The position numbers and the translations under genes were made by a program. From Candidatus Jorgensenbacteria bacterium (GTDB lineage: Bacteria > Patescibacteriota > Minisyncoccia > UBA6257 > GWB1-50-10), in contig DRGK01000008.1 of assembly GCA_011050075.1 (NCBI GenBank), positions 1 through 50,243 on the forward strand: a DNA stretch of 50,243 nt. The letters are read 5' to 3'. Under the pieces are notes generated by a model that was given only the letters and a program-made list of their open reading frames with translations, had not been told where the DNA came from and searched no databases. The stretch's first letter is position 1. Every line of letters starts with the position of its first letter. Shown piece after piece: positions 5,620 through 37,433 of this stretch.

Positions 5620-7509
5620 CTATTTTGTTGTTAGAAAAGAATACCAAGGGAAACGTTCATCCAAAAGATCGCTTGTTTCGGCAGATGCGGTTAATGTTTT
5701 AGTAATTTTTATTGGAATGAATCCGAATAGTTTTCTTGGCTCGGTTTCTCTTATTTTATATACGGCAATACCGTTTTCTTCTTCGAGAACTACCCCCTTC
5801 TCAAGTGTGATATTGGCATATGTGGGACGTCCGGAACGCTTACTGATACTTTCTATAACATCGCTTGCCGCAAGTTTTACCTCGGAGTTGCCTACTCGCA
5901 GCATATTGTCTTTGATAGAAATCTCTGCGGCTTCAACCTCTACGGTTTCTTTCCCGTCCGGGTCCCAGCCGCGAACAATAACTCCTCTCGCGGTCGGTTC
6001 AACGCTTGCAGGCCTATCGCCAACCGTAAGGAATATCTTTTTGTCCATTGTCTTTACCACGACATCATCGGCTCTTATTTCTCCCCGGCTTACTTTTATC
6101 TCCGTTACAATACTGGCAAGTTCGGAGACCTCCATTTCTTTTCTGCCTTTGATGAGTTTTACGATAAGTTCATTTATTTCTTCTTTCAGTGACCTGAGAT
6201 TCTGTATTTGTTCATTGGTGTCTTCCGTTGCAGTTATGTTTTCAATCCTGGCTTTGTAGTAGTCGTTTATTTCCTGTCCGGACTCAACAACTACCGGCTT
6301 TACAGGTTCGGCAATGGATTTTAAGTCCATACTTAATATCTCCGTTGAAAAAGTACCCAGAGCTCTTTTTTCGACAAAGTAACGCTGACCCTCACACTGT
6401 GCCCTTACTTTTTCAAGACCGTTGGGGAGGCTGGATAATATTCTTTCAATCTCCTCTCTTGAAAAACCAGTTTGTTCTTTGAGGTCGGCATTACTTAAAT
6501 TACTCAGTTTCTCGTAATAGGCGATTTTGTTTTCCCACTGGGTAACTTCTCGGCACCTGTCTATAGCTACCGGTCTTAAGGAGCTGGTAGTTCCAGTAGG
6601 CGGTTGCATTGGCTCTATCTTAGTAGTATTGGCGGTGCAACTCTTTCGATATCTTTCAACCTCCAGTTTTAAAGCAGTGATTTTCTTTATTATTTCTTCC
6701 GCCAAAACCCTATCATTCTCTGACTCTGCTTTTCGCAAATCAAGAAGAAACCGATTGTAGTCTTTGGTAAGTTTGTCGGGAATGTAGCATATAGCGATTG
6801 GTTTTGTTTCTATTAAAGGCTTTGTTGGAGTTTCCGTTGGTGCTAGCTCGTTTTGGCTCTCGCCCTGACTTGGTGGGGTAGGTGCAACTCCGCAGCGGTT
6901 AGCGCAGATCGATCGCGCATAATTATTCCACACATAAGATGACTTACATGAACTTTCTCCGCCCCGTTTCTCCTCATAGCCGTCATAGCATTGGAAATAA
7001 AGATTTTTGAACGCACCAACTCCGCATTCGTTTGAAACACCAAAAGTGTTCACTCCACATTTTTTAACGATGATTTCAGAAACGACGCTCGGAACTAATC
7101 CGGGGACAGTGGATGGCGGCTGGACAATATACGGCTGCTTAATTTCGGTTTGCGTTGGAACTGGGTAAATGGTTGTCGGAGAAGGTGCAATTGAGGAATC
7201 GGCATCAATTCCAATTCCAAGCTTATCGAATTCTACAAGAATCGCTTGCGCACTATTTTCATTGATTCTAATTTCAATCAGGATTGCTTTAAGGTCAGCT
7301 TTACTGATACCAACAGACAGGGCATCGGTTACCCTGTTTATCTCTGCGCCGCCGATACCGTAACGCAGAAGTAAATCTCCAACTTGTTGATTTACTATTG
7401 CTGTTGAGGTATTTGACCTTGAACTGTTATAATCTTCGGCAGAAAACACCGCTGTAGCAGTGAGTGTCATTATCACTATGACCAATGCTGTGATTATTTT
7501 TACACGCAT
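5620..7509 (-). CDS. Large secreted/surface hypothetical protein, 629 aa, with Pro/Thr-rich linkers and a Cys-rich module
   Basis: Signal peptide MRVKIITALVIVIMTLTATAVFSA; PT-rich linkers; 6-Cys block; C-terminal RKLFGFIP...PWYSFL. Confidence 0.8.
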   Translation of the reverse strand: MRVKIITALVIVIMTLTATAVFSAEDYNSSRSNTSTAIVNQQVGDLLLRYGIGGAEINRVTDALSVGISKADLKAILIEIRINENSAQAILVEFDKLGIGIDADSSIAPSPTTIYPVPTQTEIKQPYIVQPPSTVPGLVPSVVSEIIVKKCGVNTFGVSNECGVGAFKNLYFQCYDGYEEKRGGESSCKSSYVWNNYARSICANRCGVAPTPPSQGESQNELAPTETPTKPLIETKPIAICYIPDKLTKDYNRFLLDLRKAESENDRVLAEEIIKKITALKLEVERYRKSCTANTTKIEPMQPPTGTTSSLRPVAIDRCREVTQWENKIAYYEKLSNLSNADLKEQTGFSREEIERILSSLPNGLEKVRAQCEGQRYFVEKRALGTFSTEILSMDLKSIAEPVKPVVVESGQEINDYYKARIENITATEDTNEQIQNLRSLKEEINELIVKLIKGRKEMEVSELASIVTEIKVSRGEIRADDVVVKTMDKKIFLTVGDRPASVEPTARGVIVRGWDPDGKETVEVEAAEISIKDNMLRVGNSEVKLAASDVIESISKRSGRPTYANITLEKGVVLEEENGIAVYKIRETEPRKLFGFIPIKITKTLTASAETSDLLDERFPWYSFLTTK

Positions 7510-7547
7510 AAATTTACAAGGATGTTATATTATCGCACTGTTGCTTG

Positions 7548-7673
7548 CTATCCTTTTTTACCAACCCGCCTTGATCGCGAGGCGAGCATCTCACGTTTTA
7601 TCGCTAACCTCTTTTGAGTCTTTTTTGAATGAGTCTTCTTTTTCTTTCCTACGCCCGTACTTCTTTTTGCCAT
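7548..7673 (-). CDS. Small very basic protein, 41 aa (MAKRSTGVGKKKKTHSKKTQKRLAIKREMLASRSRRVGKKG); absent from the ORF track
   Basis: Hand translation; TTTACT-17-TATAGT promoter with the -10 box 7 nt before the ATG (leaderless). Confidence 0.7.
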   Translation of the reverse strand: MAKRSTGVGKKKKTHSKKTQKRLAIKREMLASRSRRVGKKG

Positions 7674-7749
7674 AAACATAACTATACCCGCAAAAGAGGG
7701 GAAAGTAAAAACGAAAGTTTTTGTTTTCCCCGAATGCCATGGAAGTATG

Positions 7750-8991
7750 TTAATCGATAAACGTTAAGGCCTTTCCCTTCTGAGTTCCACGGCCGGTTCT
7801 TCCAATTCGATGGATGTAATCATCATACGTTTCTGGAATTTCGTAGTTAATAACGTGCGTAATATTACTAATATGCAGCCCACGCGCAGCAACATCAGTT
7901 GCTACCAATATCTGTACGCGATTCTGCTTAAAGCTTAGTAAAGCTCGTTTCCGCTGTGCTTGTGTTTTATTGCCATGAATAGACTCTACCTTTATTCCAC
8001 GTCGCATCAATATGCGTGACAAGTTTTCTACTCCATGCTTTGTTCGTCCAAACACCAGAACCTTTTTGAATTCATCATTTTTCAGTAAGTCGTGCAATAC
8101 ATCCACCTTGTTTAAATTACGAACCCGTATAACGTCTTGTTCAATATTTTTTGGAGTTTCCACTGTTTTTACAGAAATCGTACTCGGATCTTTTAAGAAG
8201 TCAGCGATGAGTCTCTCTATAGTTGTTGACATAGTCGCGGAAAAACAGAGCGTTTGCCGCTTTTCTGATATACGAGACATTAAGAATCTAATATCGTGTA
8301 TAAATCCCATATCAAGCATTCTATCTGCTTCATCGAGCACTACCGTATGTACTTCATTCAGCATAAGATTTCCTCGTTTTACTAAATCAATAAGACGTCC
8401 TGGAGTACCGATAATAAAATTACTTTTCCGCTGCAATTTTCGAATTTGTATCCCTATGTGTTCTCCCCCTACACACGCTACGGAATATATACGCATCTGT
8501 TTTGTAAGTCCCCGAAGCTCTTGTTCTATTTGTTGTGCAAGTTCACGAGTAGGAGTTGTAATAAGAATTTGTTCATGTGAATTTTGCAGCACGTTCTCAA
8601 TAAGTGGAATAAGAAACGCTGCTGTTTTCCCGGTTCCTGTATTTGCAAGTCCAACCACATCTTTTTTCTGAAGAATAGGAACAATGATCTTATCTTGAAT
8701 AGGAGTTGGTTGTGCGTATCTAAGTTGTTCAATAGAACGCAGCAATACAGGATTTATCTCAAAGTCTGCGAATGAATGTTCTGGTACAAAAATTTTTTCT
8801 GGGACGGACGAGGAAGCTGTTTTGTTAATAAAAGAAGAGATGTCGAGCTTTTGACTTTTTGACCTGCCCCTTCTCGCTGAAAATTGTGAAGATCCACCAC
8901 GAAAACCACCACTTCTCTTTGAGTGACTAAATCTTGCATTTCGTGTATATTTTCCACGTGTTCGCCGTGAGGATGTTTTTTGATTGTACAT
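7750..8991 (-). CDS. DEAD-box RNA helicase
   Basis: Q-motif PTPIQ, ANTGTGKT, PTRELA, GTPGRL, LDEADRMLD, FSAT, ATDVAARGL, YIHRIGRTGR. Confidence 0.97.
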   Translation of the reverse strand: MYNQKTSSRRTRGKYTRNARFSHSKRSGGFRGGSSQFSARRGRSKSQKLDISSFINKTASSSVPEKIFVPEHSFADFEINPVLLRSIEQLRYAQPTPIQDKIIVPILQKKDVVGLANTGTGKTAAFLIPLIENVLQNSHEQILITTPTRELAQQIEQELRGLTKQMRIYSVACVGGEHIGIQIRKLQRKSNFIIGTPGRLIDLVKRGNLMLNEVHTVVLDEADRMLDMGFIHDIRFLMSRISEKRQTLCFSATMSTTIERLIADFLKDPSTISVKTVETPKNIEQDVIRVRNLNKVDVLHDLLKNDEFKKVLVFGRTKHGVENLSRILMRRGIKVESIHGNKTQAQRKRALLSFKQNRVQILVATDVAARGLHISNITHVINYEIPETYDDYIHRIGRTGRGTQKGKALTFID

Positions 8992-23354: not shown

Positions 23355-23457
23355 CATCAATCACCCCATCAACATTAACCGCTGAGTTATCTCAATTCAG
23401 CGGTTTTTATTACACTCGGGTTGTACTGCTTTGCGAGCGTGGTATGATAGCCGAGTT

Positions 23458-24327
23458 ATGGATACGCGACTCAGAAAGAAAATACTCGCGTTTCAGCGAG
23501 CAGAAATAACCGAGCACTATATTTACAACCGCCTCGCGCGCGGCATGAAAGATACCCATAACCGTGAGGTGCTCGAGCGCATTGCGGCCGATGAAAAGAA
23601 ACACCACGATTTTTGGAAACAGCGAACCGGTGAGACCGTATCACCGAGGCAGTTCGTGGTACTGTGGTACGTCATTATAGCGAAGGTCTTTGGCCTCACG
23701 TTTGGCGTGAGACTCATGGAGAGGGGAGAGGGATACGCGCAAAAAAATTACCGTGCCGTCGCCCATGTCGTTTCTGAGGTGGAATCGATCATTAAAGATG
23801 AAGAAGAGCATGAACGTGAACTCATTGCGCTACTTCACGAAGAGCGTCTCACGTATATTGGCTCGGTCGTGCTTGGGCTCAACGACGCGCTGGTTGAGCT
23901 AACCGGCGTGCTTGCCGGATTAACATTTGCGTTGCGGCAAACGGAATTAATAGCACTCGTTGGATTGGTAACCGGCATCGCCGCGTCTCTTTCTATGGCA
24001 GCGTCGGAGTACCTATCTTCGAAGGAAGGTGATATATCGAAAACAAATCCACTAAAGGCTGCAACCTACACCGGTATTGCGTATGTGATAACGGTCTTTT
24101 TGCTTGTGATGCCATACCTTTTGCTTGAGAATGTGTATGTGGCACTCGGAATAACACTGATCACTGCAGTCGTAATTATATTTGGTTTTACGTTCTATAT
24201 TTCGGTTGCGAAAGACGTTCCATTCTGGAAACGCTTCTTGGAAATGGCAGTGATTAGCTTGGGCGTTGCCGCGCTCTCATTTATAATAGGACTTGTGATA
24301 CGCAATGTTCTCGGGATAGAGATTTAG
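23458..24327 (+). CDS. VIT1/CCC1 family Fe/Mn exporter with N-terminal ferritin/rubrerythrin-like domain
   Basis: E..E...Y, DEKKH, E..HE carboxylate motifs; VLGLNDALVE, ASLSMAASEYLS. Confidence 0.92.
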   Translation: MDTRLRKKILAFQRAEITEHYIYNRLARGMKDTHNREVLERIAADEKKHHDFWKQRTGETVSPRQFVVLWYVIIAKVFGLTFGVRLMERGEGYAQKNYRAVAHVVSEVESIIKDEEEHERELIALLHEERLTYIGSVVLGLNDALVELTGVLAGLTFALRQTELIALVGLVTGIAASLSMAASEYLSSKEGDISKTNPLKAATYTGIAYVITVFLLVMPYLLLENVYVALGITLITAVVIIFGFTFYISVAKDVPFWKRFLEMAVISLGVAALSFIIGLVIRNVLGIEI

Positions 24328-24346: not shown

Positions 24347-25168
24347 ATGACAAATGACAATTATCAAAATGCTGAAGAAGAAATCCAAGAGATAGAGAAT
24401 CGTCTCAGAACTCTTAAACAGCAATCACGAAGGGGGCGTGGGGACCGATACATTCTCCCGACATCCATTCTTATAGCAGTGCTTCTCATTTCTGGCGCAT
24501 TTATTTATTCACAAGGAAAATCTGTAAGTCCGCAACAGGCTTCTTTGGGGAACGCGGTTCCGCAACAGGCATCATCTCCGGGTTTTGGCAGTAGGTCGTT
24601 AGACAATTTAAGACCGGTGAGTTCAGAAGATCACATCAATGGTGATCCTAATGCGCCGGTAAAAATTATTGAGTATTCTGATTTCGAGTGTCCATTTTGC
24701 AAACGCTTCCATCCAACCATGCAGCAGGCCATGGATGAATATGGCAAAAGCGGGCAGGTTGCATGGGTATACCGCCACTTTCCCCTTGATCAGCTTCACC
24801 CTGTCAAGGCACGTCTTGAAGCTGTTGCATCAGAGTGTGTAAATGAGATTGGTGGAAACAACGCTTTTTGGCAGTTTGCTAATCGGTTTTTTGAACTCAC
24901 GCCATCAAATAATCAGACAGATGTTGATACTATTTTACCCCAGATAGCCCAAGAAATCGGTATTGACCGAGACAGATTTCAGTCATGTCTTGAAAGCGGT
25001 AAGTATGATGACCACATTCAAGATGATATTGATAACGCTATTGCCACGGGCGGCCGTGGTACGCCATGGAGTATTATTGTCACCGAAAATGGTCAAACAT
25101 TTCCTATAAATGGTGCACAACCTTATCAATTAGTGAAGCAGCTTATTGATTTAGCACTACGTGAGTAA
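24347..25168 (+). CDS. Membrane-anchored DsbA-like thioredoxin-fold protein
   Basis: EYSDFECPFCKRFH, YRHFPL, GTP cis-Pro loop, GAQPY. Confidence 0.93.
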   Translation: MTNDNYQNAEEEIQEIENRLRTLKQQSRRGRGDRYILPTSILIAVLLISGAFIYSQGKSVSPQQASLGNAVPQQASSPGFGSRSLDNLRPVSSEDHINGDPNAPVKIIEYSDFECPFCKRFHPTMQQAMDEYGKSGQVAWVYRHFPLDQLHPVKARLEAVASECVNEIGGNNAFWQFANRFFELTPSNNQTDVDTILPQIAQEIGIDRDRFQSCLESGKYDDHIQDDIDNAIATGGRGTPWSIIVTENGQTFPINGAQPYQLVKQLIDLALRE

Positions 25169-26842: not shown

Positions 26843-27700
26843 ATGGATATAATCTTTTCCGCATCTATTATTGCAGCGTTCTTAGCCGGTATGGTTGCGC
26901 TTTTTGCTCCGTGCTGTATCACTGTGCTTCTTCCCGCGTATCTTGCCTCTGCATTCAGAGAGAAAAAGAATGTCTTGAAGATGACCTTTATTTTCTTTGC
27001 CGGGATTTCAGCGATTCTTGTGCCGATTGGGCTGGGTGCAGCCGGTCTTGCTCAAGTATTCAGGGATTTCCATAAAGAACTCTACATTTTTGGTGGATTG
27101 TTTATGCTTCTACTTGCCGTAATGTCGGTTTTGGGGAAAGGAATATCCATGCCGTTGCCGAAGCGCATTCAAGCAAAAATGGACCCGTCCAATACGAAAT
27201 CTGTTTTTATGCTCGGTGTATTGTCTGGAGCTGCCACCTCATGCTGTGCGCCAGTACTTGCAGGAGCAATGACGCTTGCGGTTATCTCAGGCACATTTTG
27301 GAAGGCGCTTGTAGTTGTGTTTGCGTACGTGTTCGGTATGACATTTCCATTGTTTGTCACGGCGTACTTCTATGACAAATATAAGATAGAGCAATCCAAG
27401 ATAATCAAAGGAAAGCTTTTGAAAATGAGAATTGGTGCAAAAACCTTATATGTGCACTCCACTAATTTGATATCGAGTGCCATATTCCTCATAATCGGAG
27501 CAACTATGCTTGTGTTGGGTCTTTCGGGTAATGCCTTTTGGTCACCGCATACGCAGGCGGAAGTGGGGCGCACACTCAACGCTTGGACACAGAACATCCT
27601 TAATTCATTATCGATTATTCCAGACGGTGTTTGGGGCGCGATCATCATCGGAGTTTTCTTTCTCTTTCTCTACAAAATAAAGAGAAACTCTAATAAATAA
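26843..27700 (+). CDS. CcdA/DsbD-TM-like membrane protein with two CC pairs
   Basis: AFLAGMVALFAPCC and GAATSCCAPVL. Confidence 0.85.
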   Translation: MDIIFSASIIAAFLAGMVALFAPCCITVLLPAYLASAFREKKNVLKMTFIFFAGISAILVPIGLGAAGLAQVFRDFHKELYIFGGLFMLLLAVMSVLGKGISMPLPKRIQAKMDPSNTKSVFMLGVLSGAATSCCAPVLAGAMTLAVISGTFWKALVVVFAYVFGMTFPLFVTAYFYDKYKIEQSKIIKGKLLKMRIGAKTLYVHSTNLISSAIFLIIGATMLVLGLSGNAFWSPHTQAEVGRTLNAWTQNILNSLSIIPDGVWGAIIIGVFFLFLYKIKRNSNK

Positions 27701-27711
27701 ATTAATAAAAC

Positions 27712-28671
27712 ATGGAATTACTTAATCAAAACGACGACAAAAAACGTACCTCGGCGGATTCTCAGAAAAAAGAAGTGAACTATTGGAAATGGATTGCAAT
27801 AGGGTTTGTAGGAATCCTTGTGTTTACGCAATTATTTGACATAAACATAAACTCCCGCTTCGGTTCTGGTAGGGGCTTGCAAGCGAATATAGTGCAAAAT
27901 CAAGACAGTGTTGACTTAGAAAAAGCAGTATTGCCGTCTGGCGGGGTAACCTTACCGGTCAGGTGGGGTGATTTAGGTAAACAGATGATTGAAGCCGGTG
28001 TGATTGATCAGGAAAAATTTGAATCCCTCTATGCGCGGAGAGGTGGGCTTGATGAAGATGCAGAAAAACTGCTCTATGGTACAAACAATGGGAAGTTAAG
28101 AATAGATGAACAAAATTCCGGATTCTTGCTCAATCTTTTGTGGGCCTTTGGTTTAGCAAATCAAAACGGGATTTTAGAGGAAGGGCCGATACAGGACTTA
28201 AAATACGGAGGAGACGTAAGCCGCTTTGCTTCTACCGGCGGATGGAGCTTGGCAAAAGGCGATGTAATGAATCACTACAGCAAGCACCCATTTATTGTCT
28301 TGACCACCGAACAGCAGAATCTTGTTGAGAGGGTATCACAAAATATTTATCGCCCGTGCTGCGGAAATTCGACATACTTCCCGGACTGCAATCATGGCAT
28401 GGCAATGCTCGGTCTTCTTGAGTTGCTCGCTTCACAAGGCATCGGTGAGAAAGAAATGTATGAAGTGGCACTTCAGGTAAACTCCTACTGGTTCCCGGAC
28501 ACCTATCTTACCATTGCCAAGTACTTTGAGAAGCGAGGTGTTGAGTGGGGTGACGTAAACCCAAAAGAGATTCTTGGGTCGGCATACTCCAGCGCGCAGG
28601 GTTATCGCCAGATTCTTGCAGAAGTTGTACCACCGCAATCTCGAAATAGCGGGGGCGGTTGCGGTATATAA
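27712..28671 (+). CDS. Membrane-anchored hypothetical protein with RPCC...DCNHG motif and C-terminal GGGCGI
   Basis: Single TM segment; YRPCCGNSTYFPDCNHGMA. Confidence 0.85.
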   Translation: MELLNQNDDKKRTSADSQKKEVNYWKWIAIGFVGILVFTQLFDININSRFGSGRGLQANIVQNQDSVDLEKAVLPSGGVTLPVRWGDLGKQMIEAGVIDQEKFESLYARRGGLDEDAEKLLYGTNNGKLRIDEQNSGFLLNLLWAFGLANQNGILEEGPIQDLKYGGDVSRFASTGGWSLAKGDVMNHYSKHPFIVLTTEQQNLVERVSQNIYRPCCGNSTYFPDCNHGMAMLGLLELLASQGIGEKEMYEVALQVNSYWFPDTYLTIAKYFEKRGVEWGDVNPKEILGSAYSSAQGYRQILAEVVPPQSRNSGGGCGI

Positions 28672-29123: not shown

Positions 29124-29551
29124 AAAAAACACATCTTATTATTATTGGCATAGTTGGAATTGTTGCGGCGGCTCTTCTAATAAACGCAGTATATGTGGAC
29201 AATACAATCCCAACTTCATCTGCTGCTCTCTTCAGCACCAAAACAAACAGCGAGGGTAATGTTTCAGTAATGGCAACGCCAATCGATCAATCAGATTGGA
29301 GCTTTGAGATAACGCTTAATACCCACTCTGTAGATATCAATGAAGACTTAGCTCAAGTTTCAACTCTTACAGACGAAAATGGCAACGAATATAAACCAAT
29401 TGAATGGCGAGGCGATCCGCCCGGTGGCCATCATCGCAAAGGAGTGCTTAGTTTTGGCGAAATCACGCCACGACCACAATCAATTACCCTATTTATTAGT
29501 CAAATTGGCGGTATAGACGAACGTAAATTCGAGTGGATAACTCAACCTTGA
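29120..29551 (+). CDS. Secreted/anchored hypothetical protein with NTHS and GGHH motifs
   Basis: N-terminal TM; His motifs suggest metal binding. Confidence 0.8.
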   Translation: MKKTHLIIIGIVGIVAAALLINAVYVDNTIPTSSAALFSTKTNSEGNVSVMATPIDQSDWSFEITLNTHSVDINEDLAQVSTLTDENGNEYKPIEWRGDPPGGHHRKGVLSFGEITPRPQSITLFISQIGGIDERKFEWITQP

Positions 29552-29577
29552 CCTAAAATACCCCATAGGGGTATAAT
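29548..29577 (+). promoter_or_regulatory. csoR promoter with CsoR-type operator
   Basis: TTGACC-18-TATAAT enclosing the palindrome ATACCCC-ATA-GGGGTAT (29558-29574). Confidence 0.85.
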
Positions 29578-29585
29578 GACGACAT

Positions 29586-29855
29586 ATGAAGCCGGAAATC
29601 AAGAAACAAGTCGTCCGAAGACTCAAAATTGCAGAAGGTCAAATTCGCGGTCTTCAGAGAATGGTCGATAAAGAAGAGTATTGCATTGATATTATTACGC
29701 AATCCCTTGCAATTAAACAAGCATTGTCTAGTGTGGAAGATTTGCTTTTAGAGAATCATCTCTCCTCCCATGTTATTAATCAAATTAAATCAGGAAAAGA
29801 AGGAAAAGCAATTAAAGAAATTATGACCGTGTATAAAATCTCAAAGAAAAAGTAA
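29586..29855 (+). CDS. csoR: CsoR/RcnR family metal-sensing repressor (C33-H58-H62)
   Basis: RRLKIAEGQIRGLQRM, YCIDIITQ, LENHLSSHV. Confidence 0.93.
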   Translation: MKPEIKKQVVRRLKIAEGQIRGLQRMVDKEEYCIDIITQSLAIKQALSSVEDLLLENHLSSHVINQIKSGKEGKAIKEIMTVYKISKKK

Positions 29856-29919: not shown

Positions 29920-31089
29920 ATGACACAGCAGCCCCTAGATCAATTAACCACTGTTCAGAAAAAAACAAGAACCTATCTTGTTGTCGCTTTTTTCATACTA
30001 ACAGCTGTGTTTCTGGTTGGTATTTTTTGGCTGGCTTCAACTCCCGGACAAACCGTAGGCTTAACACTCGCTTTTGCTGCCGGGCTTTCCATGATTGTCT
30101 TACCCTGCACTTTCCCTTTGGTTTTTGTGATTGTTCCTCTTGCCATGGGCAAAAGTCCCAAAAAGGGGTTGCTGATGGCTGTCCTTTTTGGTTTGGGTCT
30201 TATTATTACTTTAAGCATTTATGGAGTTGTAGTTGCTTGGGCCGGTCAGATTTTTGGTTTAGCCAGCGTTAGTAAATGGATGTTTTTGGTGGCAGGTGTT
30301 GCCGCTTTACTTTTTGGGCTTTCTGAATTGGGGCTTATTCACCTAAAACTTCCCTACTACAAAGGAGCAACCCCGCAATTCGTTCAAAAGCAAGGAGATT
30401 ATTTAAAGGCATTTTTTATGGGGTTGTTTTTGGGCAATGCCGGCATTGCGTGTCCCAATCCTGCCACCTATGTAATTTTGACCTATATTGCCTCAAGTGG
30501 AAGTATCGCTTATGGCGCCGCCCTGCAAGCGGTCAACGGACTCGGAAGATTTTTACCGCTTCTTGCTGTTACAATCCTCGCCATCGCAGGAGTCAATGCC
30601 TCAATGTGGTTTATGCGGAAGAAAGAAGCAATACAAAAAGCTACTGCGTGGATGCTTATCGTGGTCGGCGCCTTTGTCGTGGTCTGGGGAATTTACGGGC
30701 ACTTTTGGTTTTTGAATACGCCGCTGCACAGTGGATGGACAAGATGGTTTGGAACTACAATTAGTTCTAGTGTGGCTGAATACGAATGTTGTATTAATCC
30801 TCCTTGCGGTCAATGTCTTGATGGCTGGATTTGGGGCCCCGGAGTGTGCGAGTGTCGTATTCATCTAGAACAAGGTCACCTCGATCAAGTTTGCCCGGAG
30901 TGCAGGGTCGGACTTGCAGAGGGTAAGGGCGTGTTTGATATAGCCAAGAGAACAGAAAAGCCGGCCCTTGCTTTGCTTGGGGGCTTAATCTTGGGGCCCG
31001 CCGTCTGGTACATTGCCAAAAGAAGGTTTTCAAAAAAAGAAGATGATGAGGACGGCTCAAAAGAAACAACCGAAATAAAACATGAGTAA
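29920..31089 (+). CDS. CcdA-like membrane protein fused to a C-terminal 8-Cys domain
   Basis: LPCTFP and GIACPNP redox Cys pair; YECCINPPCGQC...CEC...CPEC. Confidence 0.85.
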   Translation: MTQQPLDQLTTVQKKTRTYLVVAFFILTAVFLVGIFWLASTPGQTVGLTLAFAAGLSMIVLPCTFPLVFVIVPLAMGKSPKKGLLMAVLFGLGLIITLSIYGVVVAWAGQIFGLASVSKWMFLVAGVAALLFGLSELGLIHLKLPYYKGATPQFVQKQGDYLKAFFMGLFLGNAGIACPNPATYVILTYIASSGSIAYGAALQAVNGLGRFLPLLAVTILAIAGVNASMWFMRKKEAIQKATAWMLIVVGAFVVVWGIYGHFWFLNTPLHSGWTRWFGTTISSSVAEYECCINPPCGQCLDGWIWGPGVCECRIHLEQGHLDQVCPECRVGLAEGKGVFDIAKRTEKPALALLGGLILGPAVWYIAKRRFSKKEDDEDGSKETTEIKHE

Positions 31090-31255
31090 TAAAGCCACCA
31101 GTATATATTTTGTAATCTTTGCTGTTTTGTATTTTGGCTACACCGTTTTTATTGCAGCTCATGGAATTCATTGGACAAATTCTATAATTACAATCGCGGT
31201 AATCGCCTTAGCAATTTATTACTATTTTAAAGGTCGAAAATTGAGTAAAAAATAA
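31082..31255 (+). CDS. Small 2-TM protein, 57 aa (MSNKATSIYFVIFAVLYFGYTVFIAAHGIHWTNSIITIAVIALAIYYYFKGRKLSKK); absent from the ORF track
   Basis: Fills the gap exactly (overlaps the upstream stop, ends 2 nt before the next ATG); two TM segments, HxxH loop, basic tail. Confidence 0.75.
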   Translation: MSNKATSIYFVIFAVLYFGYTVFIAAHGIHWTNSIITIAVIALAIYYYFKGRKLSKK

Positions 31256-31257
31256 AC

Positions 31258-31719
31258 ATGAAGATAGCAAAGAGTAGCCTCATTTTAGGATTGGCTTTAG
31301 TGTTGATTGCAGGAATGGCCTTTGGGTATTTCATAAAGCCGTCAGCACCGTCAGAAGATCATCTGGCAATGATAAAAAATAAAAGCATTGCCGAACAAAG
31401 AGAAGCTTGGATTGGTATTGCCGATAGTATTAGAGGTGAATTGGCAATGGAAGGAAAGTATGATTGTTGTTTAGACAAGCCGTGTTGGTACTGTATTCAG
31501 AAAACTCCCGGACATGGCGAAGGAGCGGAATGCACATGCAGACAGGACATTTTAAACGGCGAGCATCCATGCGGCGAATGTATTGGTGAAATCTTGGAAG
31601 GGCACGGGCTTGCTGAATTGAAGCCATTTTATGCCAAAGCAATCGCTCACAAAGTGGGATTACAGCACGAGGAACACTTACAGGATATGATTAATGATAT
31701 GTATCCGGAAATTCAATAG
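31258..31719 (+). CDS. Membrane-anchored stand-alone 8-Cys domain protein
   Basis: N-terminal TM; YDCCLDKPCWYC...CTC...CGEC. Confidence 0.85.
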   Translation: MKIAKSSLILGLALVLIAGMAFGYFIKPSAPSEDHLAMIKNKSIAEQREAWIGIADSIRGELAMEGKYDCCLDKPCWYCIQKTPGHGEGAECTCRQDILNGEHPCGECIGEILEGHGLAELKPFYAKAIAHKVGLQHEEHLQDMINDMYPEIQ

Positions 31720-31724
31720 ATTTT

Positions 31725-31931
31725 ATGAATTGGTTTAATATTGGTCTGACATTAGATACATTAGGCAAGGTGTTGCTTGGCATTACCGTGCTGATGGTTC
31801 ATTGGCATGTTTTGAAAGAGCACAAAATAGACGCTGATGTATTACGCACAATGAAACGAGAGCAGGCCTTAGGCGCATCAGCAATTTTGTTGATTATTAT
31901 TGGTTATGTCTTACAGCTATTATTTCATTAA
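31725..31931 (+). CDS. Small 2-TM membrane protein
   Basis: Two hydrophobic helices with a HWH..EH loop. Confidence 0.75.
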   Translation: MNWFNIGLTLDTLGKVLLGITVLMVHWHVLKEHKIDADVLRTMKREQALGASAILLIIIGYVLQLLFH

Positions 31932-31970: not shown

Positions 31971-32165
31971 ATGGTTTTAGGATTATTCAAAAAACATTGT
32001 CCCGTTTGCGGCCAAGATGTGGAAAAGGGAAAAGCGGTGAAAAGATTCGGTGAGTATCTTTGTTCTGAAGAGCACGCTGAGGAATACCACAAGAAGTTAA
32101 CTAAAGAAGAATCGAAAGACGCAGGTCGTGGCGGTCGTGGCGGTCGTGGCGGTTGTTGTGGTTGA
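31971..32165 (+). CDS. Small TRASH/YHS-like metal-binding protein ending GGCCG
   Basis: CPVCG...YLCSEEH. Confidence 0.8.
   Translation: MVLGLFKKHCPVCGQDVEKGKAVKRFGEYLCSEEHAEEYHKKLTKEESKDAGRGGRGGRGGCCG
32124..32150 (+). repeat. Tandem repeat (GGTCGTGGC)x3 encoding (GRG)3
   Basis: Three exact 9-bp copies. Confidence 0.85.
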
Positions 32166-32717: not shown

Positions 32718-32975
32718 ATGAATAAAATTCAATTCTTAACAATGCCTAATTGTCACAACTGTGAAGCTGTCAAAAAGATCTTTGATGAAATAATGCCAGA
32801 TTTTTCTGACAAAGTGGAGGTTGAAGAAATTGACATGACAACACCAGAAGGACAAGAGCTGGTACAGAAATACAGCATTATGTCCTCTCCTGGAATAGTT
32901 ATTAGCGGAGAACTTTTTTCAACTGGCGGAGTGGATAGAGAGAAATTAGTAGAAAAGGTTAAGTCACTAAAGTAA
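32718..32975 (+). CDS. Small thioredoxin/glutaredoxin-like protein
   Basis: PNCHNC, YSIMSSPGIVI. Confidence 0.9.
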   Translation: MNKIQFLTMPNCHNCEAVKKIFDEIMPDFSDKVEVEEIDMTTPEGQELVQKYSIMSSPGIVISGELFSTGGVDREKLVEKVKSLK

Positions 32976-33696: not shown

Positions 33697-33725
33697 TTGA
33701 CTCTAATACCCCCTATGGGTATACT
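33697..33725 (+). promoter_or_regulatory. cfa-copA promoter with a second CsoR-type operator
   Basis: TTGACT-17-TATACT enclosing ATACCC-CCTAT-GGGTAT (33706-33722). Confidence 0.85.
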
Positions 33726-33742
33726 CATTATATTATATTATT

Positions 33743-34867
33743 GTGCAGGAAATCATTACTCGTATGAGAAAAGAAAAACAAATTATTGAATCTCTGCTCT
33801 ATGATGCTGGTATCACTATAAACGGCAGTGAACCACATGACCCACAGGTGCATAATGAGAATTTTTATGGTCGCGTGTTGCGTCAAGGGTCATTGGGACT
33901 TGGAGAATCATATATGGACGGATGGTGGGACTGTGAACAGCTTGATCAGTTATTCCACAAACTTATTTTGGCCGAGCTTGATCGAAAAGTAAGAGGCGAT
34001 TTGAATATGATGCTAAAGGTTGCCTGGAGTGCTGTTATTGGCATTGGCAGCAAATTAAAAGCGTTTGAGATTGGCCGGCATCATTATGACATTGGCAATG
34101 ATCTTTATCGCGCTATGCTTGATAAGCGATTGACCTATACATGCGGGTATTGGAAGAATGCGAAAAACCTCAACGAAGCACAGGAAGCGAAACTTGATCT
34201 TGTATGTGAAAAAATCGGCCTTAGGCACGGGCAGAAAATACTTGACATTGGTTCTGGCTGGGGAAGTTTTATTGGATTTGCTGCGGAGAAATACAAGGTG
34301 AGCGCTGTTGGAGTTACCATTTCAAAAGAACAGAAAGAACTTGCCGACAAATTATACAGGAATCTTCCCGTGGAAACCCGGCTGCAAGACTATCGTGATA
34401 TAAACGAAAAGTTTGACCATGTTGTATCCTTAGGAATGTTTGAACATGTTGGTTATAAGCACTACCGGGATTTTATGAAAATTGTGCACGGTGCTCTAAA
34501 GGATGATGGGCTTTTCTTACTGCACACTATTGGCGGCAATCGCTCTGTGCGGGGAACGAATCCATGGATTGGTAAATATATTTTCCCCAATTCAATGCTT
34601 CCCTCGGTGCGGCAGATCAGTAAGGCGATAGAGGGACTCTTCGTTATGGAAGACTGGCATAATTTCGGAGCTTATTATGACAAAACATTGCTTGCATGGC
34701 ATAATAATTTTGAAAACAATTGGGACAAAATAAAATCAAATTATGACGATAAATTTTATAGAATGTGGACGTACTATTTATTGTCTTGCGCTGGATCGTT
34801 CAGAGCAAGGAAGAACCAATTATGGCAGATTGTGCTTTCAAAAAAAGGGTGTCCGGAGCGGGTATAA
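33743..34867 (+). CDS. cfa: Cyclopropane-fatty-acyl-phospholipid synthase (start may be ATG 33764)
   Basis: LGLGESYMDGWWDC, HYDIGNDL, YTCGYW, LDIGSGWG, VSLGMFEHVG, YIFPN, RMWTYYL..CAG.FRAR. Confidence 0.96.
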   Translation: MQEIITRMRKEKQIIESLLYDAGITINGSEPHDPQVHNENFYGRVLRQGSLGLGESYMDGWWDCEQLDQLFHKLILAELDRKVRGDLNMMLKVAWSAVIGIGSKLKAFEIGRHHYDIGNDLYRAMLDKRLTYTCGYWKNAKNLNEAQEAKLDLVCEKIGLRHGQKILDIGSGWGSFIGFAAEKYKVSAVGVTISKEQKELADKLYRNLPVETRLQDYRDINEKFDHVVSLGMFEHVGYKHYRDFMKIVHGALKDDGLFLLHTIGGNRSVRGTNPWIGKYIFPNSMLPSVRQISKAIEGLFVMEDWHNFGAYYDKTLLAWHNNFENNWDKIKSNYDDKFYRMWTYYLLSCAGSFRARKNQLWQIVLSKKGCPERV

Positions 34868-34886: not shown

Positions 34887-37433
34887 ATGAAAAAGCAAAC
34901 ATACAAAATTCAAGGTATGCATTGCGCTGGCTGCGTGAGAACGCTTGAGCGAGTTCTTATGAAAACTGCCGGAGTGCGTTCGGCGTCGGTTAATTTTGCC
35001 TCGGAGTCAGCGCTGATTGAATTTGATGAACAGGTTATCTCTGACTCAGACCTTGCTCAAACTATCGAGTCAGTAGGTTACAAACTCGAGATTGCAACTC
35101 AAGAAAAAAAGGAAGAAGAAAAAATTGATAAAAATTCTGAAACAGTCTCAATAAAAGTAATAGGTATGGATTCCCCACACTGTGCAATGACTGTTAAAAA
35201 AGCCATTAAGAAGTTGTCTGGTATTAAGAATATTGATGTTGATTTTTCCAATAAACGGGCGAAGGTTGTATTCAACCCCAAGGCACTTTCCGTCGATGAA
35301 ATTTTTAAAGTAATTACCGACGCCGGTTACAAACCGATTGAAGAAGAGGGGCGGGCGGAAGAGATTTTAGATAAAGAAAAGATTGAGCGGGAAAAGCAAG
35401 TAAGGATTCTCAAAACCAAACTTATTATTGGCGGCATTCTTTCTATCTTCATATTCTTGGGCAGTTTCCCGGAATGGTTTTCTTTTGTACCGCAGATATT
35501 GAGCAATAACTGGATACTCTTAATACTCACAACACCGGTGCAATTCTGGGTCGGCTGGCAATTTTACGCCGGGCTTAAGTTTCTAGTAAAATACCGAACT
35601 GCTGATATGAATACATTGATCGCTATCGGCACGCTGGCCGCATATTTTTACAGCGTTGCGGTTACCGTCTTTCCCGATTTCTTTATCGAGGGAGGAGTAG
35701 TACCGGCCATATACTTTGATACTTCAGCAATTATTATTGTCTTGATACTCTTGGGGAAATATTTTGAGGTGCTGATGAAGGGGCGGGCGTCGGAAGCAAT
35801 TAAAAAACTGATTGGTTTACAGCCAAAGACCGCAAAAGTTTTGAATGATGGGAAAGAAATTGAGATGCCAATTTCAGAAGTAGAAGTTGGACATTTAATA
35901 GTTGTTCGGCCCGGAGAAAAAATCCCTGTTGACGGAAAAATTACCGAAGGCGACTCAGAAATTGATGAGTCGATGGTAACGGGAGAATCAATGCCGGTTC
36001 ATAAAACAGTCGGTAGCGCGGTCATCGGAAGTACCATAAATAAATTTGGCACCTTTACATTTCAAGCGACAAAAATTGGTAAAGACACTGTTCTTTCTCA
36101 AATTATTAGGATGGTAGAAGAAGCGCAGGGATCAAAAGCGCCCATCCAACGCCTTGCTGATCTTGTTTCTTCATATTTTGTTCCCGTTGTGATGGTGATC
36201 GCTGTTCTGACTTTTATTACTTGGTTCTTCTTCGGGCCTACGCCTGCTTTTAATTTTGCTCTTATTAATTTTGTGGCAGTTCTTATTATCGCCTGTCCAT
36301 GCGCACTTGGACTTGCAACACCAATGGCGATTATGGTCTCCTCTGGCAGTGCGGCAGCAAAAGGAATATTAATCAAAGATGCAGCTTCGCTTGAAATTGC
36401 AAACAAAATAAACACGGTAATTTTAGATAAAACAGGCACGCTTACTCAGGGAAAACCGCAGTTAACTGATATCATTGCGTTTGATAATGAAAACCGAGCA
36501 CGGGTTCTCAATCTTGCCGCATCTCTGGAGCAAAGATCGGAACATCCTTTGGCGCAAGCAATTCTGCAGCATGCCGCGAGTCTTGACCAGAAGTCTTCTC
36601 ACCCGCTTGATAAGGCAATTATGGACGAGGCAAGAAAAGAAAAAATAGAGTTGTATAAACTGGAGGACTTCAAAGCAATTTCTGGAAAGGGTCTGCGCGG
36701 ATTTTTGCAAATTCAGTCGCAAAGAGTTGAGGTTTACTTAGGAAACAGAGCTCTCATGGCTGATATTGGACTTGATGTCTCTTCGCATGAAGACAAGATC
36801 AAGAAACTTGAAAGCGATGGTAAAACTGTAATGATTCTAGCCGTTGATAAGCAAATCAAGGGCGCTCTTGCCGTTGCCGATGTACTGAAGAAAGAATCAA
36901 TTGAAGCAATAAAAGCCTTGAAAGAAAGTGGTTTGGAGGTCTGGATGCTTACAGGGGATAACGATCGCACTGCTCGCGCTATTGCTCGTCAAGTAGGCAT
37001 AGAAAATGTAATGAGCGAGATTCTGCCTGACAAGAAATCTGAAAAGGTGCGGGAACTTCAGGATCAAGGAAAAATTGTTGCAATGGTCGGAGACGGCATC
37101 AATGATGCACCCGCTCTTACTCAATCTAATATCGGCATTGCTATGGGCGAGGGTACGGATATTGCAATGGAGTCTGCTAATATCACTCTAATGAGAGGAA
37201 ACTTAATGCTCATTCCGGAAACGATAAAGCTCTCAAAGCGAACAATGAGAATAATAAAACAAAATCTCTTTTGGGCATTCTTTTATAATTCCGCATTTAT
37301 CCCAGTTGCGGCCGGGGTTTTGTATCCTTTTTTTGGAATTTTGCTTAATCCTATTTTCGCCGCTGTTGCAATGGCATTTTCGAGCATTAGCGTTGTCTTG
37401 AATTCATTGCGATTAAAAAGGGTTGAAATATGA
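34887..37433 (+). CDS. copA: Cu(I)-exporting P1B-1 ATPase
   Basis: GMHCAGC and GMDSPHC HMA domains, [31 protein letters not shown] and MAFSS signatures. Confidence 0.96.

Follow-up and report, generated by a model that had tools for sequence, protein, structure and literature searches.

What does a small domain with eight cysteines do when it stands in two neighbouring genes, once built into a CcdA-type transporter and once free? The question is raised by a stretch of 50,243 nucleotides from a Candidatus Jorgensenbacteria bacterium (contig DRGK01000008.1), which was analysed at its full length and is called the window here. A reading made from its letters without database searches (the sequence-only reading) had pointed out the pair and had taken the domain for an undescribed, extracytoplasmic client of CcdA. 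Here we show that the two neighbouring genes share a real, strictly conserved 8-Cys domain, that this domain belongs to no described family in Pfam, NCBIfam, the PDB or Foldseek, and that the free protein is a member of a large family from bacteria of the Candidate Phyla Radiation (CPR) and from DPANN archaea, in which the upstream partner is usually CopG/DUF411 and not CcdA. The pair is probably an unstudied part of cell-surface copper handling. On balance we lean towards an unnamed extracytoplasmic domain of copper defence at the cell surface, which would be fed by CcdA and would bind Cu(I). What is new is the domain; the system that it serves, in which copper defence uses a surface thiol pathway fed by CcdA, is of a known kind. 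The genes and domains concerned are listed below.

29920..31089, + strand: CcdA/DsbD_TM thiol-disulfide transporter (PF02683) with extra N- and C-terminal transmembrane (TM) helices and an 8-Cys loop
30781..30930, + strand: 8-Cys domain, fused copy, Tyr288 to Gly337 of the 389-aa open reading frame (ORF) 29920-31089
31258..31719, + strand: membrane-anchored free 8-Cys protein, 153 aa, with N-terminal anchor, long helix, Cys core and two C-terminal helices
31459..31608, + strand: 8-Cys domain, free copy, Tyr68 to Gly117 of the 153-aa ORF 31258-31719

A strictly conserved 8-Cys domain of no described family

The coordinates of both domain copies in the sequence-only reading were exact, and translations of both ORFs carry the shared motif Y-x-C-C-x3-P-C-x2-C ... 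C-x-C-R ... C-x-E-C-x6-G-x-G. The fused and free proteins matched each other by BLASTP with E = 4e-5 over 83 residues. When an alignment of 56 free proteins was compared with one of 26 CcdA-8Cys fusions by hhalign, the probability was 94% and E = 1.4e-7; the match covered 55 columns and brought the eight Cys of both groups into register, as the earlier reading had remarked. The eight Cys and one tail Gly were invariant in a mixed domain alignment of 45 sequences, in which conservation was 90% or more for the Tyr, for the Glu within C-x-E-C and for E-G-x-G in the tail. Among 418 instances of the domain that were aligned to the profile, 396 keep all eight Cys, and the only full-length departures were one clade in which CC has become CA (8 instances) and a single sequence that is likely damaged. 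The antisense ORFs 30601-30864, 30794-31171 and 31430-31642 were disregarded as genes because the + strand products have hundreds of homologues.

Neither Pfam nor NCBIfam returned a match on the 8-Cys domain in the window proteins, in 50 diverse relatives or in 20 further distant members. Sequence and profile searches of the PDB with the domain gave nothing below E about 1 (profile best E 0.98), and RING-type zinc fingers appeared in the profile search as weak, non-significant matches with E about 1-4. The full-length AlphaFold2 (AF2) model of the 153-aa free protein, with a predicted local distance difference test score (pLDDT) of 87.9, consists of a long helix, a Cys core of three short helices, each of which opens with a Cys pair, and a further two helices at the C-terminus; no match to this model was found by Foldseek in the PDB (best E 2.2). 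A thioredoxin family was not matched on the 8-Cys regions in Pfam or NCBIfam, the model being helical and without PDB match; zinc-ribbon, treble-clef and RING-type Cys domains gave neither a sequence nor a fold match in the PDB profile search and Foldseek; and membership of CopG/DUF411 (PF04214) was not indicated by any Pfam match. No description of the domain was found in the literature, including that on CopG/DUF411, CcdA, copper, Patescibacteria and CPR/DPANN. A domain profile search collected 179 representative clusters at 50% identity. Thus, the domain is undescribed, as had been supposed. The PCYCGC family (PF13798), which the motif brought under suspicion, matches no window protein and in two homologues covers an added C-terminal domain; in P0117 this extra domain spans residues 135-217, outside the 8-Cys core.

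An even number of Cys conserved so strictly could belong to a structural module, a small surface domain for protein contact or sensing that is held stable by four disulfides or by two Zn(Cys)4 sites. The weak RING-type matches, and the DsbA-like genes found in 29 of the 80 loci described below, agree with such a module. The existence of the CC to CA clade, which is left with seven Cys, is easier to reconcile with Cys that act as ligands or in redox than with four structural disulfides; neither a zinc-finger nor a knottin family or fold was matched; a fully oxidised domain fused to a reductant exporter makes little sense; and the genomic company of the domain is consistently related to copper. 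We consider a structural module highly unlikely.

The free protein has 442 homologues, all of them called hypothetical; the few with a named source carry the labels Patescibacteria and DPANN. The CcdA-8Cys fusion accounts for 40 clusters, and fusion partners across the family include CcdA, DUF411/CopG, HMBD heavy-metal domains and Met/His-rich tails. Tandem 8-Cys domains occur with CPMMGG Met-rich linkers, and one protein (P0173) is a DUF411-8Cys fusion. HMBD-8Cys proteins made up 8 of the 50 distant members scanned, with His-rich (GHKHNH) tails, and one HMBD-8Cys gene is part of a Cus-type RND operon, where its neighbours are CDF, MerT-HMA and CopZ-like genes. A subfamily of small proteins with ten Cys is similar to the fused type. 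Two N-terminal 8-Cys copies are found on secreted proteins of 516-731 aa (P0226, P0242, P0248 and P0270). The C-terminal region of these four (GPRG..KIFSTNWFMP ... PALGPPAFPHR) is large and without Pfam match, and may form a domain in the outer membrane. Among close homologues of the free protein, many (L094 9180-9752; P0012, P0033 and P0054) have a cytoplasmic N-terminal extension of 25-45 residues that starts MDCC or MNCC; the window copy is without it.

CopG as the usual neighbour and CcdA as the partner in the window

Neighbourhoods were compared in 80 species-representative loci holding the free protein; nearly all are labelled CPR bacteria and DPANN archaea, and a few automated labels differ. 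The ORFs of these loci were searched with iterated hidden Markov models (HMMs) whose seeds came from the window and L001/L005. Around the free 8-Cys gene the following were found.

73/80 loci: DUF411/CopG (CGCC motif), directly upstream and on the same strand
34/80 loci: P1B ATPase, within 8 kb
29/80 loci: DsbA-like gene
29/80 loci: relative of the window's 319-aa CC...DCNH protein
17/80 loci: unfused CcdA
11/80 loci: CsoR
10/80 loci: ArsR

The identity of DUF411 was confirmed by Pfam for L001 and L022. The window itself encodes no DUF411 in six frames (HMM from 79 DUF411 neighbours, best E 0.53). In the window and in the loci without CopG upstream (L011, L012 and L014, which is the same as L005), the place is taken by the CcdA-8Cys fusion instead. 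Tentative DUF411-CcdA fusions of 409-417 aa in L013 and L030 were iterated-HMM matches only, DUF411 being unconfirmed by Pfam and DsbD_TM below threshold, and were not used.

Adjacency in 73/80 loci, the one CopG-8Cys fusion, and an upstream slot held by either CopG or CcdA-8Cys would suit another explanation, in which the 8-Cys protein is no copper store but exchanges electrons with the Cu4 centre of CopG, so that Cu(I) and Cu(II) can be interconverted; in the window lineage the CcdA-8Cys fusion would then replace CopG as the link to the redox source. CopG has a Cys-bridged Cu4 cluster and has itself been proposed as a copper oxidoreductase (PMC7558416). Against this, the 50-kb window lacks CopG, and nothing shows a Cys-only domain carrying electrons without metal or cofactor. 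The explanation overlaps largely with the one that we favour, from which sequence cannot separate it, and as a distinct account we find it quite unlikely.

The 389-aa fusion protein matched PF02683 (DsbD_TM) over residues 48-234 with 46.9 bits, the cut-off being 27.1. Its CcdA part has the redox Cys63 (LPC63TFP) in the first core helix and Cys178 (AC178PNP) in the fourth; both adjoin prolines and are invariant in 26 homologues. The K/R-rich loops 1-19, 77-86, 141-163, 230-240 and 367-389 alternate with K/R-poor loops. By the positive-inside rule, and with the weakly hydrophobic Cys-bearing helix 164-191 taken as TM, the fusion would have eight TM helices and both termini inside. Loop 260-347, which holds the 8-Cys domain between TM6 and the extra C-terminal TM7, is predicted to lie outside. 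In the free protein one anchor, at residues 8-26, follows the N-terminal MKIAKSS, and the rule thus agrees with an earlier placing of both domains outside the membrane. CcdA paralogues with the same extra C-terminal TM were seen at L011 6463-7533, L068 2303-3298 and L090 8550-9623, and have His/acidic loops (EHEHAVGD, EEEHGHED) where the 8-Cys domain would sit. This suggests that the outside loop of these CcdAs may be a swappable metal-contact module.

A Thioredoxin_3 gene of 74-94 aa is present in 8/8 loci with a CcdA-8Cys fusion (the window, L005/L014, L011, L012, L013, L094, L095 and L096). The gene order of L096, namely DUF1573 / CcdA / 331 aa / 151 aa / 160 aa / CsoR / CcdA-8Cys / 55-aa TM / free 8-Cys / Trx, matches that of the window, and L096 has in addition a 314-aa Pyr_redox_2 (TrxB-like) gene between the 55-aa TM gene and the free 8-Cys gene. 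The L013 locus, from an uncultured archaeon, has a 525-aa ORF (6876-8453) in which CcdA-8Cys is followed by a K-rich linker, an anchor and the free ectodomain, with consistent topology; this ORF may be a true fusion or an artefact of assembly or frameshift. The fusion to CcdA, the constant cytoplasmic thioredoxin and the TrxB-like reductase of one locus agree with the idea that the domain is a CcdA client, and together with the L013 ORF they point to a redox link.

The same three features would also be expected of a pure thiol relay or repair system in which the domain binds no metal. The fused domain would then act as DsbD-gamma/alpha or ScsC, and the free copy as a surface disulfide reductase or isomerase repairing copper-catalysed mis-oxidation. 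Two CxxC motifs lie at predicted helix N-termini in the AF2 model. A role of DsbD/DsbC and of CcdA-fed thioredoxin-fold proteins in copper tolerance is established: CueP is kept reduced by DsbD/DsbC, and in a monoderm by a DsbA-like protein for which a CcdA-like feed was proposed (PMC4546943). However, a reductase needs one CxxC and not eight invariant Cys, no thioredoxin fold was detected by Pfam or Foldseek, and CcdA is not nearby in most members of the family. Moreover, the fusions with HMBD, DUF411/CopG and Met/His-rich tails indicate metal handling itself. We therefore regard a relay without metal as unlikely.

Probable copper-related regulation and a proposed mechanism

The explanation that we favour places the pair under copper control, and the genes and sites of the window that bear on this are as follows.

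29548..29577, + strand: promoter-like site TTGACC-18-TATAAT, 11 of 12, best match in 26-38 kb
29586..29855, + strand: csoR-family metal-sensing repressor, 89 aa (PF02583, 86 bits, E 2.3e-24)
32718..32975, + strand: 85-aa cytoplasmic thioredoxin/glutaredoxin-like protein (CHNC; PF13192, E 4.2e-10)
33697..33725, + strand: second promoter-like site (TTGACT-17-TATACT), in front of cfa and copA; palindrome TACCCCCTATGGGTA at 33707-33721
34887..37433, + strand: CopA-type P1B ATPase with HMA domains (PF00122, PF00702, PF00403)

The CsoR-type palindrome TACCCCATAGGGGTA is present as an exact match at 29559-29573, inside the spacer of the first promoter-like site. At one mismatch or fewer the window has two matches to the palindrome as compared to 0.01 expected, and two were reached in 0/100 shuffles. 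The pair follows csoR, and these sites agree with its earlier description as lying behind a CsoR-operated promoter. The best NCBIfam match of the repressor was RicR with 61 bits, below the cut-off of that family. The CopA translation has the CPC, YN and MxxSS motifs as in Cu(I)/Ag(I) pumps. A cyclopropane-fatty-acid synthase gene (cfa, 33743-34867) lies between the second operator-like site and copA, so modification of membrane lipids appears to be co-regulated with copper export. The ccdA-8C gene overlaps the next gene, for a 57-aa protein, by 8 nt, which is followed after a gap of 2 nt by the free 8-Cys gene and then by a gap of 5 nt; such tight packing is consistent with one transcript. The 85-aa thioredoxin is the likely electron donor to CcdA.

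A route through these components can be proposed. Copper would release the CsoR-type repressor from its two operators, thereby turning on csoR-ccdA8C-tm57-free8C-...-trx as well as cfa-copA. Electrons would pass from the small cytoplasmic thioredoxin to the two membrane Cys of the CcdA part, which would reduce the 8-Cys domain in its own outside loop, and this fused domain would swap electrons, and possibly Cu(I), with the free membrane-anchored paralogue. The reduced CC, CxxC, CxC and CxxC thiolates would bind Cu(I), including that pumped out by CopA, and the bound Cu(I) would be buffered or handed on. In most other lineages CopG would fill the role of the upstream partner, and the reduced thiolates may service CopG there. 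The domain would accordingly bind Cu(I) and/or relay electrons. The involvement of copper is suggested by CsoR and the two operator-like palindromes, by CopA, by the adjacency of CopG and the P1B ATPases, and by the DUF411/HMBD fusions, the Met/His tails and the His/acidic loops. As far as computation can go, the interpretation offered by the sequence-only reading is supported, with metal binding and redox activity as putative properties.

Several observations weigh against this proposal. Across both subfamilies the domain has no invariant His or Met, and it conserves Glu/Asp residues, which one would not usually expect where Cu(I) alone is bound. The domain-only model, built from the mixed domain alignment, reached a pLDDT of 62 and was too poor for a fold search. 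CcdA was found within 8 kb of the free gene in 17 (unfused) and 7 (fused) of the 80 loci, and since most loci are without it, the supply of reductant is not universal; moreover, the DsbA-like genes could mean that the Cys are oxidised to disulfides. The repressor has Cys33/His58/His62 at its ligand positions in the translation, i.e. x-C-H-H as compared to the usual x-C-H-C, and hence the inducing metal is not certain. A C-H-H ligand set is present in CsoR of Thermus thermophilus.

The remaining genes of the island include the following.

26843..27700, + strand: second, unfused CcdA, 285 aa (PF02683, 36.6 bits), in the upstream half of the same island
31082..31255, + strand: 57-aa protein with two TM, overlapping the ccdA-8C stop by 8 nt and ending 2 nt before the next start
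31725..31931, + strand: 68-aa two-TM protein of unknown family, from ORF and hydropathy
31971..32165, + strand: 64-aa protein containing CPVC-x17-C-x3-H, its repetitive tail being GRGGRGGRGGCCG; weak PF09889 match, E 0.0022, below cut-off

The 57-aa TM gene hidden between the two 8-Cys genes had been suggested to complete their complex. It is a real gene, with 14 homologues at 69-100% identity and an invariant IA[AG]HGIHWTNSIIT, of which HGIHWTNS forms a predicted outside loop containing both His. The same position is occupied in L096, while the gene is missing from the close relatives L094, L095 and L012 and therefore cannot be an obligatory subunit; the protein may be a clade-restricted accessory subunit. 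It has no meaningful similarity to the 64-aa TM protein at the same position in L005 (Aenigmarchaeota). For the 68-aa protein, no match was found in Pfam or NCBIfam and no homologue in the 80 loci. The 64-aa CPVC protein is a possible treble-clef or TRASH-like metal binder; it gave no alignment to the YHS protein in the same slot of L005.

Upstream, the single Cys normally found in CcdA are replaced in the unfused copy by vicinal pairs (APCC, SCCAP), and this gene is followed by a protein of 319 aa and then by proteins of 154 aa (SCCAHY) and 143 aa (PGGHH). This gene order recurs in L096 and L094. The 319-aa protein (27712-28671) is exported, carries YRPCCGNSTYFPDCNHG and a tail ...NSGGGCGI, and is without Pfam or NCBIfam match; since its relatives lie within 8 kb of the free gene in 29/80 loci, it is another uncharacterised core member of the island. 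The same co-directional island opens with a rubrerythrin-VIT1 iron transporter fusion (23431-24327) and a DsbA-like thioredoxin (24347-25168).

Relation to known systems and significance

CopG/CutG (DUF411, PF04214; P. aeruginosa, PDB 6WIS) resembles the 8-Cys proteins in its extracytoplasmic location, which for the latter is predicted, in its Cys motifs (CxCC, vicinal Cys) and in its occurrence in copper-resistance clusters. The two show no sequence similarity, and the thioredoxin fold of CopG differs from the predicted small helical Cys core flanked by long helices. They are genetically inseparable (73/80 loci) and once fused; they are partners and not relatives. To our knowledge, no working partners of CopG have been described, although CopG is widespread in copper-resistance clusters.

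The window pair is also like DsbD / ScsB-ScsC, CcdA-fed ResA, Etrx and CdDsbA-CueP, where a DsbD_TM/CcdA conduit feeds an extracytoplasmic Cys domain and copper tolerance is involved; the proposed acceptor of CcdA-8Cys is fused to the conduit, an arrangement that DsbD also has. In contrast to these systems, the 8-Cys acceptor has neither a thioredoxin fold nor the Ig-like fold of DsbD-alpha, has eight invariant Cys, and sits between TM6 and an added TM7 instead of at a terminus, with a free paralogue following in the operon. The occurrence of one domain both free and membrane-fused, which allows exchange of cargo between like folds, recalls CopZ and the N-terminal HMA domains of CopA. Those have another fold, two Cys as compared to eight, and lie on the other side of the membrane, and the membrane partner of the 8-Cys domain is CcdA and not a pump. 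The dense mix of CC, CxC and CxxC, packed into about 50 residues that offer few further conserved ligands, is shared with metallothioneins, Csp, Cox17 and CopY/Ace1. No homology to these Cu(I)-thiolate cluster proteins exists, and whereas they are cytoplasmic or located in the mitochondrial intermembrane space, the 8-Cys domain is predicted to lie on the cell surface, where a reductant exporter is coupled to it.

In CPR bacteria and DPANN archaea, respiratory and electron-transport chains are largely absent (PMC7507113), and cytochrome c maturation is therefore an unlikely task of this CcdA. A broader proposal is that the 8-Cys domain forms a new class of extracytoplasmic copper-thiolate/redox centre which, with CopG or thioredoxin-fed CcdA, would make up a haem- and quinone-independent system; transfer would explain why bacteria and archaea, two domains of life, both have the module. 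We put this forward tentatively and hold it to be rather doubtful.

A strictly conserved, uncharacterised domain is thus the near-constant neighbour of CopG in two large groups of ultra-small uncultured organisms, and in one lineage it is wired directly to a CcdA electron conduit. With at least 179 clusters at 50% identity annotated only as hypothetical, the family deserves a model in public domain libraries. Should Cu(I) binding or electron relay by the domain prove true, it would be a new type of acceptor for CcdA/DsbD-class transporters, would provide a small expressible protein (an ectodomain of about 120 residues) for CopG-type chemistry, and would give CcdA a task in organisms without cytochromes c.

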